Shown here piece by piece: positions 8,918 to 28,227 of a DNA stretch of 64,000 bases (positions are counted from its first letter, which is position 1; each line of letters begins with the position of its first letter). Where the stretch lies: contig JANJGN010000014.1 of assembly GCA_026770705.1 (NCBI GenBank), positions 70,928,001-70,992,000 on the forward strand, read 5' to 3'. The notes beneath the pieces were generated by a model. That model did no database searches. It saw nothing but the letters and a program-made list of their open reading frames with translations, and had not been told where the DNA came from. Source of the DNA: Isurus oxyrinchus. Taxonomy: Eukaryota. Made by a program: the position numbers and the translations under genes.

Positions 8918-9000
8918 CATCGACCATAGACTCCCCTAGAAACGAATCTGTGACCGAAACATCACACAAATTCGGTTCTACAGGGTATATATAGACGACG
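8918..9000 (-). ncRNA. mir10b: miR-10b precursor
   Basis: Mature TACCCTGTAGAACCGAATTTGTG at 8987-8965; complementary 3p arm ACAGATTCGTTTCTAGGGGAGT at 8951-8930; about 1.4 kb upstream of the Hox4 ATG, the canonical location. Confidence 0.97.
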
Positions 9001-13600: not shown

Positions 13601-16232
13601 ACTGAAAATGCTATTGTTTTCAGCAGATATCTGGTGAAAATGAAAATACATTAAGCAGCACATTGATAGCCATTGTTCTGTATTCCTATTCCAAATTGTT
13701 CGGAATGTGATCGATTAGAAAACACTTGGGACTCTAGTGACACCGATAACTGAACACATGAGCTAGCAGTATTACACAGCCTCGGCTAATTAATAGAGGA
13801 GGTTCAGCAAAGAATATGCAGTAAATTCTTCATAAGCTTGCAGAATTATTCCTTAAATTAGGTCATATCTCCCAAGTACTTTTTCAATCAAACTCGCAGA
13901 TTACACAGAAACAATTTGTATCCAATACATAGCTTTGGTTCTCCGACCTCCGATTTTAAAAAAAATCGGTTTTCAATGTATGAAAATGTATGAGGCAGGA
14001 TTGTGCAGTTAACATCTTTCAGAGCTGGCTGAAGAAAATGACTAATCTAATACACGTGATCAAACAGTAAGAAAGCTCCTTGTTTTTGTGAAGAACCTTA
14101 CTAACGCTTGGTTAAAAGACCGGATAAAAGATGAGTTTATTTCTGATTTTTTCATTTAACTGTTTAGTACAATTGTGACGCACAACATTCTTCATGTCTT
14201 AGCTTTTGAAATTATAGTTGGAAACTTAGCAGCATGTATAATTCATAGTTTGTTGCAATATTGCAATACTATTTTCATAACTGAATACATATTACATATC
14301 ATATAACTAGTAGCTGTTGAAATTGAACTCACGTTGTACTGTGATTTCTGCTTTTTGGCTGGCCATGAAATAGTGCATGCGCCCAAGGGCCCCGAATGAC
14401 ATCAGGTGTCACGCATTCACCAGCTCTGTTACCGATCAGAAATAACTTACTTGCTGCTTTTCCAGTGCAAAGGTACTAGGACACGAGGACACTGCCAAGT
14501 CATAGCCGTGGAACAGGATAGCTTGCTTCTTGGTGTCACTTTCCACAGGCCCTCTCAAAAACACTAACCATCTGTACTTGTCTGCTCTTAACCTAATATA
14601 TGATGTGAATTATATTTTGGCTTGTCAACTCCCCTAACCATAAAACAAAGTTTAATGACATCACGTGCCCGTCTATAGCCAGTCAGGAACCGGCTCTGTG
14701 GCGTCCATATAAATAACCCTTAAACTTTAAAACTTTTATTCACTAAAGACAGTCATGTTCATCGAAATGTTCTCTCAGTAATATAAAGCTAAACATCTGA
14801 GTACCCAGAGGACGCCAGCTTTGGAGAATAAGTTGCCTTTACTTTAAAACGCAGTTTGGGCAGTTCTTATGCAACAACGGGGAACTATTAAATTTGGTAA
14901 GTGTAAATACACTACATGTATACGTGACCGATAGCTTCTGAACTACAGTGAAATAGAAATGGGTCGATTGAAAAGGAAAACAATAAGTCATTTTAACAGT
15001 TACAGCTTCCTATGACTTTGTTTCCCTATTTCTATCGCTTTAACAGTCAATTATTTCCTGCTGCTATAGTCTAAACGTTGGGTAAAAAATGTATTCTCAG
15101 TGCAGTTAACCTGGTAAATTATTTCATGCAATGCAATCCAATACCAAGTTGTTCATATGTTCCATTGCTCTTCCTATCAAGCCCCACCAATGGAGGTATA
15201 TATATATTTCCAAATATTTATGTTAATATCCATTAATAAAAGCAAACTCGTATTATACTTCCATTAAGTAACAGTTCATCAAGCTATCTTTTGAAAATGA
15301 ACGTGTCTGTCGTCTAGGTGCTGACGTTTCTGAAGTATGACTCATGTTCTTTTTTCAATAAAGTCATTGGAATAAGTATAAGCTCGGCCAACAGTTCTTG
15401 CCAATGATAATATTTTTTTTTAAATTCTGAAAACGTTCAAAGACGGTTCAGCCGAAGGAACGTTTATGAGTTCTGAAACATTGGGGCTAGTATTAGATGA
15501 ACTTGGATGTCAAAGGAATAGATGCAAAGTGAGAAAGTGAAATGGCGTTAGGTTCTTTCACAAGTCACCAATTGTCAGTGTCTTTATTCACCAATTGGAG
15601 TTAAACAAAACGCCAGGTGAAACGTTTATTGATAAAACTGAATTTATTTCAACGCTGTCGGCAAAAAACACCACTTCTTTCATGTACATAGGACAACGCC
15701 AGACATTTAAACATTATATATGTACAGAATATACATCACAAGATACAGCACGGTGACACTCGTGCCATAAACATTCCAAAGGATAATCAAACAAAAAAAA
15801 TCACTTTTGAAGTAAAAAGAGATGAAAGAGACAATATGTATCTATGTTTATAAAACATTTTTAAATTAGAGTCTTAGCGAAGCTATAATCCGGTATAGAA
15901 TTAGTTTGTTCAGCAACCAGATATACAGCACAATTCCATTCTGTTGTCCGAGACAAATGGCTTGCTTGGCTACCTTACGTCGGTTGACCTCTTTTTTACT
16001 CTCTTACGATCTAAATTTAGGCATGGATGTTATCATCAATATATAAAAACATGATTTAACATATGTTGATGACAACTGATAAATTGTACTCTTTTCTTTA
16101 TAAATGAACCCACATGAGAACAACGTATTGTATCTCATAGAGAAGCATTTAATGTAGCCAAGCAACCTTTCCTATTGCAACTTAAAAAATCATCTGGATA
16201 GCAATATTATATAGCCAGTTAGATGAAACAAG

Positions 16233-16484
<252 letters not shown>

Positions 16485-16843
16485 TTAAGAAAAAGTTAAA
16501 AGACGCATTACTATACGCATCAGTACAATGGAAATTATGAAGTTATACAATTTCAGTCAAAGACATTAAATGCTTAATTCTAGTACACAATCTTCAATTG
16601 TTCATATATATCTGCTAAAATAATTTAAAATATTTTCAAGTTCAAGCAGTAGGGTGCAACTTTTAGCATGATTGTTGATATAATTCACAGCAACAGTCCG
16701 ATATTCCGATATGATTCAAACTGTCATATTTTTGTAAGTAGTGGTCATATACTTAGTTCATGCTTGCCGAGTTATTTTGTTTCTCAGTCTGAAATTTAAT
16801 TCGATCAAAATTAAAGCGCGTGTCAAAAGGCCGAATGTCGTAC

Positions 16844-17351
16844 CTTGGTTAAGGTGCATCTTTTTCATCCATGGGTATATCTGCATCTGCAGGGCTGGAT
16901 CTTTGTCTAGTTGCCCATTTTCCAGTTTGGGGCTGTTCGTCCCCTTAGGATGTTCATCGTTAACCGGCGAAGTGTTCTGGTTACCGCTGTAGGACTGACT
17001 GGACTCTCTGATCGCAGCCCCCGTCTTAATAGCACTGTCTGATGGGCTTATTAAAGATGCCGAGCAGAAAGCAGGATCAGGAGTCTTAATTTTCACCCCA
17101 GATGAGCTATGGAAGGTGTTACTGGATGTTTGCAGGTAATTGGTAGACCTTTCACTGTTTCCACACAGATTTGAGTTAGAGCGAGTCACGCTGAGGTCTA
17201 TCCCGGTGCAATCATAGCCATACCTGGTGGGGAGCATTGACGACTCCCTAAAATGCTCGCCCACAGAAGCAGCATTTCCATAACTCTGCAACTGATAATC
17301 GTGGCCATTTTGATAGCGACCTGAGAAGGAGTTTAAAAAGTAGGAACTCAT
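16844..17351 (-). CDS. hoxd5: HoxD5 exon 1
   Basis: ATG at 17351, [21 protein letters not shown] (Hox5 N-terminus)...[13 protein letters not shown]; donor G|GTACGA at 16843. Spliced product 252 aa. Confidence 0.94.
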
Positions 17352-17494
17352 CTGCCTTTTAGGGGTTTGATTTGTGGTTCTCAGACGTTTATTCGCCACT
17401 AGACCGCGCGATATATAATGAAATATGGAAATAAAAGGCACATGTCATTTCTCTGCCTTCTACGTATGCAACCAAATATGGGACACAAGTTTAG

Positions 17495-17526
17495 ATCACG
17501 TGCTTTTGTTGACCAGTCGTAAATTC
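17495..17526 (-). promoter_or_regulatory. Hox5 proximal promoter block
   Basis: GATCACGTGCTTTTGTTGACCAGTCGTAAA (E-box plus TTTACG Hox/Cdx-type site) about 150 bp upstream of the HoxD5 ATG. Confidence 0.6.
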
Positions 17527-17595
17527 TTGTGCCTGACCCTGGGGATAATTCATGCAATGAGTATGCTTGCTATGATTTAGCGAGCATGGTCCTGT

Positions 17596-17612
17596 AGCGC
17601 CTCCTGCTGGCA
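17596..17612 (-). promoter_or_regulatory. CTCF motif at the Hox5|6 boundary
   Basis: Minus strand TGCCAGCAGGAGGCGCT, close to consensus CCAGCAGGGGGCGC; same position as the conserved 5|6 CTCF sites of HoxA/HoxC. Confidence 0.7.
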
Positions 17613-20584
17613 AACATGGAGAAAGCTAGGTTAGTATCAACAAAGCAAAATCCAAAAGAGGCATTGAGGTTTACACGGTTTGCTCAATATTATCCGAAAT
17701 TTCTAAAATGGTTCACGGTTAAAGATATGATAAAACCTGGGTAACAATGCTGCTTTCTGTTACGTGAAATTATGAATTACGTAGCTGGTGACATGTATAC
17801 GAGCCAGGACGCAAAATGTTTCTGTAAATACAAGTATCCTGTTTAGTAATATTATTAGAGTATACGCTTGTGTACAATACACGTGTAAAGTAACTAGCAG
17901 AACTGACATTTGTTGGTTCAACCACTTAAGAACTGCAAAATTTTATCCAACGCTTTTATTGCGAAAAATTCTAGCGCAATAATTCAACATATTTTGTGAC
18001 ACAATTAATCCTTCTTTCTCTGATTCAGTTAATACGAGCAACTTTCCTTCGTATTAACTGTGTATTTGAACCGTTAGCTTGATGCTGACTGTAAATAAAC
18101 AATTTAATTCTCGGCGAACTCGATGTCTGGATGAAAATAAATAACAGACATTCGCAGCGATTATTTCTAATATCACACACCCGATTCTGATTTTTACTCA
18201 AATAATATGGAGTTTCAGATTCTCTTTCTCGCGGGAAACGACGCCATGGAAACTATTTTCTCAGGAATGAACTTTATTCAAATATACGATTCATAGGCAG
18301 CCTCCCCACACTTGCACATACGGTCCGGGTCGCTAGAGCTTATAATGATTGCAATGTGTTATATTCGTAGAGCACTGCGCTGAAATCATTTACACATTGG
18401 TTTTATATCTTTACAGGCAGTGCATTGGAATCAGCTTTACAAAGTTTCCCATTAGCTTCCATGTGCACATACGGGCTCCTTTGCTACATCTTGCCCACTA
18501 AATTCGGGATATTACATACATATGTGTTCCCTGTTGCCACCGAAGACTGAAGAAAAATGCAGATTAACGTTATATTTTGCTTTACTGGTTAAATCGACGC
18601 TGACACCAGTCAGTCACAGAACAAGACACCGAGAAGCTAGGCGGAGTGTGTTATATACTTATTTCTAATTTCACGGCGCAATTATTCGTGAACTTTATTG
18701 CCGTTTCCCATTGTACCATCGACACACTGCGCTATGATGGGTCGTGATATTTGTATAAGCCTCTGGGATCTGATGTCCATTCAGTGTACACACTGAGCTC
18801 ATTAAAAGTAATTCCCACAGCAAGATAGTCGTCGGCAAATGTGTACACATTTGGTAAAGGAATGGTGCTGATTCCAGGTGCTGCACTGTTGGTCTGTTGT
18901 CATTCTCTGCAGTGGTAGTTTCTACACATCGAACCAGTTTGAACCGCCCAGGAACGCAAGAAAACTAACAGAGCAATAAATATAATATTTGAAATCAAGA
19001 GTTTTTTTCGCATTTTGACTAAGAGGCAGCTTATAAATTCTAGATTGCGATCCGGAGATGGATTAGTTAATGAGGAGTAGTGTTGTCAAATATCGACTGT
19101 ATTAATATGGGCCTGAAGAACTTTACAAAAGAGCGTCCAGGCTCGTAGTAATATTTAAAACAGGTGGATTGCACTTATACATCTATATTTATTTTCCGGT
19201 TGTTTTTCATTGGAATAAAAAATGCATTCCCATAACCACATTTATAAGCGCATCAATCAGCAATACAATAGGATTCTGCGGGTTATTTGGTCACCCCACT
19301 TCTTGCACACTTGATTTCTACGCTCTGGTAGCAATATTTTTGCATCATTCACTACAACGACGCTGGACACTGGAGTTATTTGTGCTCATTTTCCTGATAC
19401 CTATCACCAGAGTTTTTAAGGACAGGGGGACTAAAGTATTACAAAACAATTCAAGTCTAAGCATATTCCAAAGAAAATAGGATGCAGTCATGAACTGTAT
19501 ACAGGATCCACGTTATTAGCACGTGAATTCCAACTACAGTGTGAAAGTGCATCAACCCTGAGTTATTGGGATAGTTTCATTTCAGTGTGGAACCGCATAG
19601 GCCTCGATTGAAAGTGATCTGACTCTAGGTCCATCATATATTACAACTTATAGCTTGCGATGAGATAAGCCTAAGTACCATAAAATGCAATATTTTAACA
19701 AGTACATTTTAGATAAAATGCCATTCTATAGGTTTGGCTTTATTTATTATTAATGAAATATGATTTGTGTGCCTCTCTTGTAATTCTGATCTAAGAACCT
19801 GGTTGCTGCACAGTCCAAGTGACTCTGTCTGATGCTCGTAAATCTAACGTTGCAGCAGCCGTGTGACAGTCGGTGGAAGAAATATTGTCTTTGTCCTGTA
19901 CTAACAAATCAGGCCGCTCTTACAGAACACTCGATCGAATGGTATGGCTTCTAGTGCTGACTTTGGGGATTTTTAAAAATGTATTTTTCCAGGCTACTGC
20001 GCGTTTGGATCCTGGAAACTTTTGAGATAGGATGGGTAGCACTTGAACATTTTACCCTTACACGGGGAGCGATTGTGGATCTTATTGCCACTGTGGAATG
20101 AACAAATCGGTGCGTGCGTCACATACCAATTATTTTTTTGTTCATTTTTCACTTTACAGTGCGTTCTCCCTTGTAATAAAATCAGGAGAAGATCGTGGTC
20201 TGGAAATTCGTTTGTTTGCCAGCCCTGCGAGCAGAGAGTTATTTCTGGGATCGCAACGAATTGTTCCCGTTAAAAGCTAGATTAAATCTGTGGCTGAGTA
20301 CTTGTATTAAGAATTGTTTATATTTACAACTTGATGCTAAGAGGATTAGAAAATAAGTGTAATAAATTTTTGATGTGCTAAACGTTGGCTGTGATCAGAT
20401 TACCTTTTGTTACAGATGTTAATTGAAAAGTTGTTTCCATTAAATAAATAATATGTTGTTATTGTTATGTCGAAATTGTTTGGAAATTATATGTGAGTAT
20501 TGTCGGTGTAGAAGAATCATTGCGAGCAAATTCGCCCAGGTTAAAGGTTCCAAATAGACAGCTGGACACTGACTGTAAATCAAT

Positions 20585-20930
20585 GCATGCACACACAAAT
20601 ACAAATAAACACACACACACAGACACACATGCAGACACACACATAAACATATACACATACGGACACACATGTACATAGAGAAGCACACACACGAACACAC
20701 ATAAACACACCCAAGCAGACACACATACACATAGACAAACATACACACACACGCACATACAGACACATACACACGTACATACATATACAGGCACACATAC
20801 AGACAGGCATGCACACATACATACACATAAACACACACGCATACAGGCACCTGCACATACAGGCATACACACACGTACACACACATACACACACACACAT
20901 ACACATAAACACACATACACATAAACACAC
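20585..20930. repeat. Degenerate (CA)n/(CATA)n microsatellite
   Basis: About 345 bp of imperfect ACAC/ACAT units; source of the spurious C/V-rich ORFs. Confidence 0.95.
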
Positions 20931-21604
20931 AGTGACGTTCCTGTTGAGTATTTTAGCACTTTTAGCAAAATTACGGATTACGTGATCATGAAGAGCATAA
21001 ATTTTAAAAATCGATCTTAAAAATTGTAACTACCATTGAATTAGTAAATATGCCCTTTCTGGCTATTATATTTATAATGGTGTTTATTTCCGCTCAGTTC
21101 TCTTTTTACGTGTTTGTACCAGATTACGTTTCTCAAGAAAAAAATTTGCAAATCACAGCTCAGCCTTTCCATGTATTATTAAAAAGCTCAGAGAGCATAG
21201 CCATCGCATAACCCCAGATAACCAGTTTGAGTTTATCGAAAATTAGACCTAAACATATATTCATCTCGTTTAATTATTTAACTGAGCCGATAAGAGCTTA
21301 ATTCATAAAACCCGTATAAGAACTGTTATCGGTGCCATTAACACATAGGAATGAAATTGGACGATGCATTGAGAATTATATGAAAGCGTAATATGAACAC
21401 AATTAATGACTTGTTGCGTCAGAATTAAGGTAAAAATGAAACTGCTTTCTCAATAGGAAAAACAACACTACCTCTCCTAACCTGATACAATTCGAGTATG
21501 GATATATTTCTGTTTGTGGGTGCGGCCTGAAAATAAACAATTAATATCGAAACATTTACAATATTATAAATAATAATGATTTAATTGCAAAAATTACGAT
21601 ATCT

Positions 21605-23600
21605 TCACACATTTATTTGATTCTGGCAACGCTTTGCAATTTTAGTTTAAGCAACCACTGTTTGACAAGATACCTGTTGGTCAATGCGATAAATACAAGC
21701 GCATGTGGGTCAGCCGTTTTTAAATATTTCTTTCATTTGCAAATAATTTCAGATGCTAAACAATGAATCAATGGCACTATGAGTAGACGTCGCACAGATG
21801 ACCATGCCACCATTTTATCTATTTCCAATAAAAACCTGGAGACTAAAAGACGAACGAATTCACAGACTTGTGCTGGATATGACAATTTCAAATGGATGTA
21901 ATTACAAGCTCCTTTATTCAACTCTGCTGTTAAATGGAACAACTGATAAGCAATCTTTTCAGAATATATAATCACTGGAAATATCTACAAACAAATGCTT
22001 TGGAAAAATATAACAATAATCAACATACTTATTGATAAATTCATCTTTTGCTAACAGTAATTCGCATGCCCTTCCTCTGTGCATATTTCTGCAGCAAGGT
22101 GTTGCAACTAAGTAGAAACAGGAAAGGAGGGACGCGCGGGGGGCGGGGGGGGGGGGGGGGGGAGGTAAAGGAACCCGATTTTTCTCTAGTGACCATTATG
22201 CTTTATGTGAATGCACTTAACATTGGATTGGAGTTGTATGGACCAAATTAAAAACATTCCCAGTTTACAGAACTTTAGGATTTTTTTATGTATAAAATAT
22301 GCAAGCCAATTTGGGTACAACTTGTTGCAGTAACTGAATCATCAGATGGGCGAGCTGATATTATTTGACATTTTGCAAAACCAAGCCGCAGTTAAAATAG
22401 CTACTGAATCCCACCTCATTACTGGCACATTGAAACCACAGTCTGGTGTCGACTGCAGGGTAATTATTGTGAGAGTACCACTCATTTGTGCAAAGTTCTG
22501 TCACGTGGTTGGTCATCATTAAAATGTTGGCGAAACGTTCCTGCAAAATGCTGATCCTCTCTATGATTGCGGCACGGAATCATTCCGATCATTAACACAA
22601 GATGCATCACTCATCTCTACAACTTATCCTCAGCGTAAAGGAGTCCAACTAATGTCCTCGTCTGTAAGATACTAAATGCGCGGAACCACATACTGGCAAT
22701 AACAGAATAAATACACCAATCACCAGTAGTTGATCGGATATCGAACCCGCAAAATAACAGCAGCAATCGTATTGCTATTGGCAACAATAATCATTATCCC
22801 ATCAGGAAACTACACAATCTGATTAATCTCTGCTCTGGATCATATGAACAAATGTCAGCTGTCTTGTGGCGAACCTTACATATCAAAGATAGACACGAAT
22901 CGCAACTCCCCGTCCTATTGCGGGAAATAAATATTTAATTAATCTGCGCCACAATCATCATTGAGTTCAAATGACCACCCGGACCTGGTTTGGTTTGTAC
23001 CATTTGCAAATCTGTCTTGCTGTTTGCTCATTTATGCCGAATACCCCCTCGACCTCCCAAACAGTTGCCTGGAACTCAACCAACGAAACAAGCGCCATTC
23101 CCTCCTAGGTACAGCAGCAAAGAATGGAAAAGACAGCACTTACCCGCTTCAGGGCGCTTCCCCAGAACAGTAACCAGTTGGATGTTGTATTCCATTTCTG
23201 CTTTTTTTCGATTAATAAAGGAACTTTAAAAAAAAAGTAAAGCAAAAATTGAAGGGTAAATGAAAGACTGTAAACAGACGTCAGAGGTCTGTGAGAGTGA
23301 TCAGGTTGCTAAATCCCAGCATGGGTCGAATGACTTCCTCATAGCTGTACGGAAAAGGACTGAGCAGCGCGAATACAGCGGAAAGTGTCCTTTTTTTGCA
23401 AGCAGCTGGCGTCAAATACCAACGACAAAAGCAGGCAAGGGGAGATACTGACAGAAAAGACGATTTGAGACGAGTTAGCTGCGGAATGCAGTGAAATATT
23501 CACAAGGGAAATCATGAAAAGGCCATGAACGCAGTTACTAGATTCACATGACCAACGAGAGCCAATAGGAAGGCAGCCTCCGCCGTAAAAGGTCCATTAC
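21605..23600 (-). pseudogene. Degenerate HoxD6 relic (promoter, exon 1 at 23515-23144, homeobox remnant at 21720-21605)
   Basis: CCAAT/CACATG promoter; ATG at 23515 giving MISLVNISLHSAANSSQ/SFLSVSPL versus Hox6 [27 protein letters not shown]; donor G|GTAAGT at 23143; homeobox fragments R-L-T-H-M-R (RQTYTR), NRYL, IA-AL, QINV* with frameshifts. Confidence 0.75.
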
Positions 23601-24985
23601 AAAGTTGTAAATTTTCTTCAAACAAAAAGGAATTCGCAGCAATTCCTTGCGGATTTCACAAGTGCAGCTCGCAAGCGCCATGTTTCCTTTAACGAGTTTC
23701 TTGCTGCAGCTATTTGTTATAATGTGTATTGTAACGAACGCCTTAACTAACTATATAAGCGGAAATGCCTCGACAACATAAAGAGGAACATCTCGTATTG
23801 CAGTGGCACTCCGCAGCCCAGCAATCAAATCACTACAATTTGTTTGTGCGTCCATACTTTTTAATTCATGGTTCAAATACGTCATGTAGAGACATTCGTA
23901 TTTTCGAAAGGAAAGCTAGTTCAACAAATAATTCAATGTGTAACGATCACAATTCCTAATGCCGCCAGAGAACTGCTTCTTTTCGTTTTTGCCCTGATTT
24001 TCACAGCCCGTTCGATATGGCCCAGTGACCAGTAGGAAGTGAACGAAGAAGAAGCGTGTTTGTCTATTAAATATATATCAAAACTACGGCGGCTTGCTTC
24101 TTTCAGGTAGCAATCAATAATAAAAGTCATGTATTAACTTATTCTAAATGTTGCACGGTGCATTCTACGCAGGTGAGAAGCTGAACATTAAATCTCGGCA
24201 CATGTAGCTATCTCATTACACGCTGCACTTCAATTTCAATCACACGGAGCATTGCATTCTACCCCTCGTGTTCCCAGTGTGAGCGAAAGTGGTTCTATAT
24301 CAAATACAAAACACATCCGAGTGGTCAATAAGGTTTGCCTTAATCGGATAAAATAACTTTGGCATGAATGAAAGTGTAAACCATTTAAATCAGTTCGTTC
24401 GCTAATCTCTCCCTTCACTGACGGCGAGCGGGCTCAGCAACTAACGTTACACTGTGTTAAATTCACGGTAACCTCATTCATTAGCAGAAAAAAAGATGAT
24501 GGCCGGTAGATAATAGATATCCATATTTTCCCCTGACCACCTCCCCCCCCCCCCCCCCCACCCCATCCTTCCCGCGGGTTTAATTCTAGTGAAAGCCTTT
24601 GGTGTGATGCTTTGAACTGATCTTACGGGGGGAACCAGAACAGCGTAACCAGATACATGCCGGCATCTCATTTTTTATTTATGAAAAGGATAAAACTGCT
24701 AGAAACGTTGCCTAAAAATAAAATATATTCTGAACAGAACATTCACCAGTGCAAGCTTCCCTTACTGTGCATGGTCCGGGTGGGGTGCTGTTGGAGAGTG
24801 CGCGGTGGAGGAATTTCTGCAGAGGTTTAAAAACCCCAAAGGAACGATGTCAGAGGCAAAAGGAAGCTTTTACAAGGAATCAGGAGGAGAGTTTTTAATG
24901 TATGTTTGGCATTTTTTTGACCTCCATTGTTTGTTAAAAATCTATGGCAGTAACGCCCAAGTCAAAACACGAATTCGACCCAAAG

Positions 24986-26270
24986 CCTCGTCATTCTGTG
25001 CACCATATTTCAGCGAAAACGCGCGATTCCTACCATCCAAAAGACTATTAATAAGGCTCAGCTCTGCCGTGATTGTACACTCACTTTAATGACCGCTATT
25101 TCGGCCAAGACACGTATTTGACCGTCCAATTTGTAAATGGGAGCAAATGCAAAAATAACGTGTTTATTTCATTCTTCGTTTTAGAACGCTTTAAAAATGA
25201 ATTTAATGAAACTTTAAATTGGTTATGTTTTCTGAAAAAGGAACGCAATACACATGTATTGAAAAAAAACATCGGGTTATTATAAAGCAGAGGAGGGTTG
25301 TGAAAAACTGTTAATTTTGGGCAGAGAACTCCCCTCCGAAAGCAGAAAGCAATTTCAAAAATAAGCACTCTGGTATTAATTTATTTAGAGTTGATTTATT
25401 CTGTAAAATTATTTATATGTTATAATCGGGCACCGATTATGATATTCAATGTAACTTTCAAAATATATTTGCATTAAAATAAAATACAATACCATTGAGA
25501 TTAGGATATAGAAAATTGAAAATATATAGCTCAATGAACACAACTGGTATTTCCAAACTTCGCTGTTGTCCGTCTTGAATTAGTTAATTGCTGTTTCACA
25601 CGTCAAACTACCTGAAAGAGTGCGGATATTGTTGGAGTATGACTCTTGGTTATGTAACATATAATTCTATTCGATTACAAGTTTGAGCTGTTCCGTGGAG
25701 CAGCGATGGTTGTGGGAATAGATTCTAGAGTCCGCTGGCAAAATGTATACTGTTATCTTTAGTTCTGCAAATAAACGCGGTCTTTTAATTGTTTGTTTAA
25801 CATTTGAAGTACAATATTTGCTACCCCTCCCCCCCCCGCCCTTTCTAATTGTTTCCTGTTTGCTCGTATCAATATCTTTTCTTGATTCAGGCTTATCATT
25901 GTGCGTAAAGAAAAGGATGGAGGTTGAAAATTGCCAATTCCTATGGTTGAGGTTTATCTGCAACATGCCCATCGATCCTTAAGTGTGGCTTGATCGCTGA
26001 TTAAGGAAAATTTAATGGGAAGTTGGAAGGTTATTCGACAGCTGAACATTCTGCTTTCGCTCCCAACCTTTAAACTAAAGAAGAATAAAATGGAACCCAG
26101 AAATCCACAGTTTGTCCAGTGATTTGTAGTATTAGAACTTTTATTGTCGGTTTTACGAGATTTGCTGATATACGTGTACAGTAGACCGCAGTTAAACACC
26201 AAGCACTAACTTTTACAGCGTCGGTTTAGCCACACATGAGCCAGGCATGTGATCTGATTAGCCAATGGTC
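24986..26270 (-). pseudogene. Degenerate HoxD7 relic (promoter/5'UTR, GTG at 26108, homeobox remnant at 25127-24986)
   Basis: Minus strand TATATCAGCAAATCTCGTAAAACCGACAATAAAAG...CTACAAATCACTGGACAAACTGTG resembles the HOXA7/HOXB7 5'UTR ending ...AAATTATG; ADSRIYS about 127 codons downstream; AAATATGGTGCACAGAATGACGAGG resembles KIWFQNRR. Confidence 0.65.
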
Positions 26271-26881
26271 ATTCGAAAGACTTTTAACTTGAGGCATAGA
26301 TAAACTAATATTCTAATCATCAGCTATATCATTAACTTTTATAACTACATATAAAGAATTACGCCATCTTCAGGCTTTTGCATCCGTGTAACGGGGCGGC
26401 GGTGCTATTTGGCAGGCATACACCCTGTGGCCACAGAAACACACAAACACAAATAAAGTACATCTGATTTAACCATAAAGAAAAAATCTCGAAACAGCCG
26501 CAGAAAGCTGGCGAAGGCAGTGATCTATCCATCTCAGACTCCCACAATGCGAGCAGAATGATTTTCTATTACTACTTGTATTTTCTTTTGGGATAATAGT
26601 AGTTAAATGAAACAAGTACACAATTAAATTTAATCAACATTTATTAATTTAATCACATTCGACCATCATAAAAAGTGACTATTGCTGCGGAATACCTTGT
26701 CATTGTTTTTTTTTTGCTTTTATAATATGCTTATCGGAGATAGGTAATGGTTGAGAATTTCCAGCCGCAATACACCACCAATTATTTCACACGCACAGTA
26801 ATTAAGACACATCGTAAGTGCACGTTTTTTTCTATCATTAATTAAGTGTGTTCGCAATACATTCCAAATTATCCATTCTAT

Positions 26882-26902
26882 TAGGCAGTTCATGTTGTTG
26901 GG
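26882..26902 (-). promoter_or_regulatory. miR-196 target site in HoxD8 3'UTR
   Basis: mRNA-sense CCCAACAACATGAACTGCCTA, near-fully complementary to miR-196 (UAGGUAGUUUCAUGUUGUUGGG); 380 nt after the HoxD8 stop. Confidence 0.9.
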
Positions 26903-27281
26903 TATAATCACATAATGCTAAATAAAATCAGCAAACTAAATCAATCACCATATCATTTCATATTTTCGTCTTATTAAAAAGCAATAAAATCTTTATTCAA
27001 AATGGCTATTTCTTCTGAGATTTTGCCGACTTTTAAAGGGAGCTGCAAAACTCTGTACAGGGGTGATCAGTCAAGGTTGATTGAAAAGGTTAAAATTATG
27101 CACACGGGATTTCATTAGAAATAATGTCGAATTAAGGCTCGAAAGAACTTCAAAAACAGGTGGACTGGTTTACATAAAACTAGCCATCAACGTGCTGGAG
27201 GATTCATTCTGCTCAACACGTTTAACAGTGGAATTAGCACAAACTGAATGACGTTTTGCTTTGAGGCCAAAGGGGGTAAAG

Positions 27282-27577
27282 TTACTTGGTCTCTTTTTCT
27301 GTTGTCTCCTGCTCAGGCTCTTCCTGTTCTTTCTTGACCTCTTCCTCCTCGTCGTCGTTCCGAGAGGTTGGAAATTTGTCCTTGTTGTTCTCTTTTTTCC
27401 ATTTCATTCTCCTATTTTGAAACCAAATCTTCACCTGTCTCTCAGTCAGTCCCAGAGCATGTGAAACCTCGATCCTCCGCTTTCGAGTTAGATACGGATT
27501 GAACAGGAATTCCTTTTCCAGCTCCAGAGTTTGGAATCGGCTGTAAGTCTGTCTTCCTCTGCGTCTACCGGGTGCTG
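27282..27577 (-). CDS. hoxd8: HoxD8 exon 2 (homeodomain)
   Basis: Not in the ORF track. Acceptor TAG|CAG; reads [70 protein letters not shown]; TAA at 27284-27282. Confidence 0.96.
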
Positions 27578-27800: not shown

Positions 27801-28227
27801 CTTGAGGTCTCATCCAGGGAAACATTTGAGTAGGAGACGAGTTCTGATTTAAGTGCTCTGGTTCTTCGCCAATATTACTGCTAGACGATTTACAGTCAGG
27901 ATATTGTACCAGATCGGCCTCTTGCTGTGTCGTAAAAATTTGCTGTCTTTGTAAGTTATCGTATCCGTAAAATTTAGAGGGGTCACCATGACACGTAATT
28001 CCACAAGGATTCTGTTGAAAGCCAGCATTAGGAAGTGCAGATGTCCCATGATGGTAAAAATCTTGAACTTGAGCTGGGTGCTGGAAGCCTGCGCCGCTGC
28101 TGGGACCATAGACCACAGCGTGTCTGCTGGTCACGTCTTGTGGAAACCGGCAGTCATAGTAAGTGGGACTTAGTGCTTCTCCTGGCTTGTACTTGGAGTA
28201 GAATGGATTAACAAAATATGAACTCAT
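27801..28227 (-). CDS. hoxd8: HoxD8 exon 1
   Basis: ATG at 28227, [28 protein letters not shown]...QMFPWMRPQ; donor G|GTTTGG at 27800. Spliced product 240 aa. Confidence 0.96.

Follow-up and report, generated by a model that had tools for sequence, protein, structure and literature searches.

The stretch we studied in the gap between HoxD8 and HoxD5 is best explained (probability roughly 0.85) as a conserved promoter-type block of the Hox7–Hox6 interval together with a first exon that related sharks splice into HoxD5; it is probably not the remains of a lost HoxD6 gene. The window, by which we mean the whole 64,000-nt stretch of DNA analysed, carries the HoxD cluster on its minus strand in the order D12, D11, D10, D9, D8, D5 and D4 (ATGs of HoxD8, HoxD5 and HoxD4 at 28227, 17351 and 7568, respectively), while D3, D2 and D1 lie outside the window, beyond HoxD4. 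Paralogue groups 7 and 6 are missing from the ~10-kb gap between D8 and D5 that contains the stretch. HoxD5 exon 1 shares 99% identity with the protein of Carcharodon carcharias, which identifies the source as a shark. With 150 of 172 candidates scored, the genome gave 16 homeobox matches at E 1e-20, and no HoxC homeobox of groups 4–8 was among them. The following features are needed for the argument:

26100..26269, minus strand: HoxD7 relic, consisting of promoter and 5' leader with the ATG lost (A7+B7 upstream profile, E 8.5e-15 at 26269-26111)
23475..23687, minus strand: paralogous promoter block of the Hox7–Hox6 interval, containing CCAAT at 23566, CATGTG at 23550-23545 and an ATG at 23515
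23144..23524 (5' end approximate), minus strand: transcribed upstream first exon, from relatives' contigs
23339..23515, minus strand: 58-codon upstream open reading frame from ATG 23515, its frame lost in relatives
23144..23195, minus strand: predicted alternative N-terminus, made up of an ATG, 17 codons (MEYNIQLVTVLGKRPEA) and a single further base; it joins HoxD5 codon 11 in frame (both sides in phase 1)
23138..23143, minus strand: used splice donor GTAAGT, at which one relative's contig (X4) departs
17320..17345, minus strand: acceptor within the first coding exon of HoxD5 (AG after a pyrimidine tract; first spliced base 17320)
16240..17351 (lower end approximate), minus strand: HoxD5, target gene of the upstream exon, with ATG 17351, donor after 16844 and exon 2 from 16483

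A blastn search of the genome with 23050-23800 gave three matches: the query itself, one in HoxB (73%, E 7e-12) and one in HoxA (70%, E 3.5e-6), the latter two both spanning 23634-23484. These copies lie after Hox7, 4.8 kb upstream of an intact HoxB6 and 5.5 kb upstream of an intact HoxA6, and a profile built from them matches 23687-23475 at E 4.7e-24. In each of the three clusters the block follows Hox7, which in D is a relic, and precedes Hox5; A and B have Hox6 between the block and Hox5. The original prediction had read the stretch as a HoxD6 pseudo-exon 1 that retained its own promoter and ATG. The letters it relied on are present (a reverse CCAAT, an E-box-like CATGTG and, on the minus strand, the ATG), but the cross-cluster alignment passes straight through the supposed start codon at 23515. 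Because paralogues of the block coexist with intact Hox6 genes in HoxA and HoxB, neither promoter nor ATG belongs to HoxD6, and the block is not the HoxD6 promoter. The HoxB copy has the same ATG-bearing decamer; in HoxA the triplet is ATA. Between the block and HoxD5, blastn found no further paralogous anchors below E 0.06; at 22540-22406 the profile of the A and B blocks gives a weak match (E 0.4-0.6). Both paralogous copies carry GTAAG donors 426-484 nt downstream. In the HoxA copy (1200-1049 of its stretch, minus strand), an ATG is open for 50 codons up to the GTAAG donor 484 nt past the block, and this ATG and donor may constitute a similar upstream exon.

The block is probably the 'H8/7-6 four-cluster sequence' (H8/7-6 FCS). 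Kim et al. (2000) reportedly described a four-cluster element of this name between Hox8/7 and Hox6, and Matsunami et al. (2010) are said to have described tetra-paralogous CNSs. The shark block resembles the H8/7-6 FCS in position and cross-cluster conservation; its copies in HoxA and HoxB do lie between Hox7 and Hox6, as such an element would. Part of the text of PMC3595034 describes three CNSs common to all four Hox clusters.

The arrangement of CCAAT and E-box had been likened to that before HoxD10, and this part of the reading stands insofar as the layout occurs above chance and always at promoter-type sites. On the minus strand of the window, the reverse-CCAAT/E-box layout is found in five places, all of them promoter-type sites (D10, D9, 26266 in the HoxD7 relic, 23566 and D4), and it also precedes A4, B4, A7, B7 and D3. 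As a mark of Hox6 it fails, being absent before HoxA6 and HoxB6 of the same genome; it is a general Hox promoter pattern. Its distance to the ATG is 83-164 nt in real genes vs 51 nt at the studied site. A HoxD6 gene as first read, with its promoter, an ATG at 23515 and an exon 1 running to 23144, would account for the Hox-type promoter motif, the Hox-like first codons and the strong donor. It is nevertheless largely refuted by the coexistence of the block with intact Hox6 in two clusters, by the different layout of Hox6 promoters and by an anchored test from 23515 that is weak and not specific to Hox6 (p 0.03-0.09 for Hox4–7), and we give it hardly any credence.

The exon was traced in contigs of relatives, the source of all transcript data here, whose status as RNA is a guess. 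From 24 runs listed, four guessed-RNA runs from four related organisms were compared over 21100-23590. Their contigs cover 23524-23142 (X4), 23512-23149 (X9) and 23469-23245 (X3). The X4 contig is 1,699 nt long; its first 381 nt correspond to the exon, after which it leaves at the donor, and 28 of the 30 letters at its loose end agree with HoxD5 exon 1 at 17318, compared with 20 of 30 at the next best place. The junction, fixed by two shared letters (GT), joins 23144 to 17320 across an intron of 5.8 kb. Both the tract and the AG of the acceptor fall within HoxD5 codons 3–11, the HoxD5 ATG is skipped, and neither HoxA5 nor HoxB5 has an AG at this position. A spliced transcript ending at the polyA signal at 15648 is predicted to measure 1,694 nt. 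The junction was seen in one of the four compared runs (X4), the contigs of two more (X9 and X3) do not extend beyond the exon, and X1 has an unspliced contig that runs through the donor as well as a short piece inside the exon. None of the matching runs listed was recorded as RNA, and in four guessed-RNA runs with the species label of the best-matching runs the share was 0.00, which is evidence neither way. The original prediction thus located a donor after 23144 that is present and used in a relative, and correctly counted 372 nt from ATG 23515 to it; its side guess, a transcript that starts at about 23550, leaves by the 23143 donor and is spliced to HoxD5, is supported by the spliced contig and by the RefSeq isoforms described below.

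Taken together, the CCAAT and E-box-like sites would initiate transcription near 23525, and a roughly 380-nt exon is then joined over the 5.8-kb intron to the acceptor in HoxD5 codon 11, as one relative's contig shows. The new intron holds three conserved blocks (22953-22867, 22524-22416 and 21378-21341), to which an unspliced contig from a more distantly related organism aligns. Within the exon, the 22 nt at 23390-23369 have no listed difference in the relatives' contigs and lie beside 10 differences in 24 nt (18 rows of differences being unlisted); this stretch may be a binding site. HoxD5 exon 2 has a tandem acceptor (16483-16480), and many sharks and rays have paired RefSeq isoforms differing by one Glu.

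Five ATGs occur in the exon, of which only that at 23195 is open to the donor; the four upstream of it end in stops before 23195. An A run near 23391-23396 is one base shorter in the contigs of all four compared runs. In the predicted product, the 17 residues replace the conserved MSSYF start, and the first ten residues of HoxD5 are lost. We looked up seven of nine HoxD5 protein clusters, with 35 members listed from 17 named species. Four of these 35 members are 258-259 aa long, and all four start with the upstream-exon N-terminus: XP_078084585/6 from Mustelus asterias and XP_072332954/62 from Scyliorhinus torazame, in which 14 or 15 of the 17 residues are identical and the join is likewise at HoxD5 residue 11. 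These are automatic models that could share data with the X4 contig. The isoform is annotated in these two of the 17 named species and not in the other 15, Carcharodon included. The S. torazame isoforms are filed under 'Hox-D3a', which suggests that HoxD3 transcripts may carry the exon as well.

That a protein is made from this frame is, in our estimate, somewhat more likely than not. The ATG at 23195 would be reached past four upstream ATGs, which would probably keep output low or regulated. A transcript that is non-coding or regulatory, in which the upstream ATGs block 23195, the HoxD5 acceptor is cryptic and transcription through the cluster is what matters (for HoxD3, miR-10 or chromatin), is a serious alternative that we place somewhat short of even odds. 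It would fit the stops that close all four upstream frames, and miR-10, the sole Rfam match in the window (8923-8994), would be intronic in a transcript reaching HoxD3. Shared Hox exons are moreover non-coding by definition in the part of PMC1831499 that deals with them. Two listed differences within the 17 codons in X4 and X9 are synonymous (18 rows of differences being unlisted) and the RefSeq proteins differ at two or three residues; we do not claim coding selection on these codons, because 14–15 of 17 residues kept is about the expectation from the 92% DNA identity of the exon. Against a purely non-coding role stand the context of ATG 23195 (purine at -3, G at +4), the retention of start and frame in two other shark species, and the gaps listed in the relatives, which all lie upstream of 23195.

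We then weighed the exon itself for likeness to Hox6. The claimed peptides exist (the ATG frame encodes the first, the +1 frame SFLSVSPL, and the +2 frame GHFPLY and KSFDPC), but the size said to be near that of Hox6 exon 1 fits poorly: 372 nt vs about 430 nt (Hoxa6 exon 1 is 430 bp in three chondrichthyans). No unanchored test found significant similarity to Hox6 exon 1 once the number of targets was allowed for. Local DNA alignment against 19 targets, for which six same-group paralogue pairs served as control (z 19-54), gave z 2.2 (p 0.038) for B6 and z 0.9 (p 0.19) for A6. A frameshift-aware protein profile of 120 A6/B6 sequences stayed at chance level (p 0.20-0.40), as did C6-like and pooled 146-sequence profiles (p 0.12-0.57), and unanchored forward scoring of nucleotides placed the exon 179th among 1,752 non-coding windows (p 0.17). 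Three Hox6 DNA profiles (upstream, coding and both; nhmmer) had no match within 23100-23700 in their printed output, which extended to E 20; the best match of the A6+B6 upstream profile (E 4.2) lay outside the studied site, whereas the corresponding Hox4, Hox5 and Hox7 upstream profiles, used as controls, find their D counterparts at E 1e-28, 1e-30 and 8.5e-15. Compared with Hox6 exon 1 (HoxA6, HoxB6 and C6-like), the exon is weakly alike in its first codons and in a single stretch of 7 residues, and differs in lacking a Hox6 promoter or leader and a YPWM, in its length and in its position.

A modified form of the relic idea would let the exon from about 23465 be a decayed HoxD6 exon 1, joined to the block by a deletion of ~5 kb. 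The best local alignments to A6 and B6 both begin at 23463, at Hox6 codon 3 and right where the A/B block homology ends; GHFPLYS of the exon resembles GQIPLYS of HoxB6; and a test anchored at 23469 gives p 0.003 with Hox6, a result that Hox4, Hox5 and Hox7 do not share. That anchor is post hoc, however, one of about 40 possible, and neither the unanchored score nor the protein profiles (p 0.23-0.41 even with the relatives' shorter A run, no gain) bears it out. The Hox6-similarity tests have limited power at this age: at 0.5 changes per site, 88-93% of simulation runs recovered the relic, but about 20% did so at 0.8, with power dropping beyond 0.6, and coding remains of HoxD7 are equally undetectable. 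Yet simulated relics at up to 0.5 changes per site outscore the candidate in 94-100% of runs, and the Hox6 leader, the part that persisted in the case of HoxD7, is lacking.

Position speaks against this modified relic as well. The HoxD7 relic, ~2.5 kb upstream of the block, serves as a positional anchor, and D7 relic, block and D5 are collinear with A7, block, A6 and A5. Its coding part can be aligned by eye alone, to about 25950, and is not significant (p 0.23-0.93). In HoxA and HoxB, Hox6 lies 2.9-3.7 kb before Hox5, which places the expected HoxD6 at about 20.3-21.1 kb, whereas the studied site is 6.1-6.2 kb before HoxD5. Profile scans of 17400-27290 found no HoxD6 relic at about 20.3-21.1 kb. 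Across 17400-27290, the best score for a homeobox remnant was 15.3 (shuffled maximum 17.4), and nothing exceeded the shuffled maxima for Hox6 or Hox7 coding relics. A degenerate CA repeat occupies 20590-20932, at the HoxD6 position predicted from spacing. On balance we consider the modified relic quite improbable, and the claim of a HoxD6 gene should be dropped. What was originally observed is real in part, and of what was made of it, the main HoxD6 claim fails and the suggested splicing to HoxD5 holds.

The claim of a Hox6-like start is correct in a narrower sense: the first 18-21 nt from ATG 23515 do resemble the starts of central Hox genes, while exon-wide similarity to Hox6 was not confirmed. 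The score is reached by a fraction of 0.001-0.002 of 8,269 cluster ATGs (top 0.1%), and the same likeness to MSSYFVN-type starts puts the HoxB copy in the top 1.1% and the HoxA copy in the top 3.2%. Because the likeness is found in all three copies, a relic here would have to be older than the cluster duplications, and so not HoxD6. The block could then preserve, as an orphan promoter, the 5' end of a central Hox gene (its promoter and first codons) that disappeared before the vertebrate cluster duplications, an unlikely origin in our judgement. It would agree with the CCAAT/E-box layout of bona fide Hox promoters and with the ranking of the three ATG regions; few ATGs scoring this high stand behind a Hox-type promoter, and the HoxD7 relic shows that orphan Hox promoters do persist. 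On the other hand, the three copies are not independent, about one ATG with such a score is expected by chance per window strand, the distance from motif to ATG is 49-51 nt vs 83-164 nt, and the HoxA copy has no ATG. The T-rich decamer may instead be a Hox/Cdx-type site. In addition, the profile of the A and B blocks matched no other Hox promoter below E 0.3, and in the HoxD7 relic the start codon was the first to decay. That such a promoter persisted over 500 million years and came, in sharks, to supply HoxD5 with a new N-terminus is given only a small chance. An older-gene origin of the block is compatible with our preferred reading, the conserved block with its upstream exon.

This reading places the stretch in a known kind: a conserved Hox promoter with a real upstream exon, here an alternative HoxD5 start annotated in sharks. 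The HOXC shared exon is located between HOXC8 and HOXC6, and a shortened HOXC6 results from it. HOXC4, HOXC5 and HOXC6 have a common promoter and a shared non-coding exon, as stated in part of PMC1831499. Both systems have an upstream first exon that is spliced to at least one downstream Hox gene of its cluster, which in the shark is seen in the X4 junction and the RefSeq isoforms. The shark exon differs in belonging to HoxD, in being spliced into the coding part of HoxD5 and in having its own in-frame ATG. In the papers searched we found no spliced in-frame link from a four-cluster element to HoxD5, and nothing on a HoxD6 relic, on the function of the block in sharks or on the HoxD5 isoform, a weak negative given that older key papers fell outside their scope; the block and the HoxD7 relic may already stand in the footprint tables of older Hox papers.

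For the shark HoxD cluster, the interval shows what survives the loss of Hox genes, namely promoters and leaders and not coding sequence. If the block were the relic of an older gene, the Hox gene count of the vertebrate ancestor would change. By analogy with the HOXC4/5/6 exon, HoxD5 and probably HoxD3 would gain, through this promoter, expression from a site further 5' in the cluster. The finding gives a Hox element conserved across clusters a concrete job, that of driving a spliced first exon. It also points to a form of HoxD5 in sharks that lacks the N-terminal motif conserved across central Hox proteins and would be expressed from a different cluster position.
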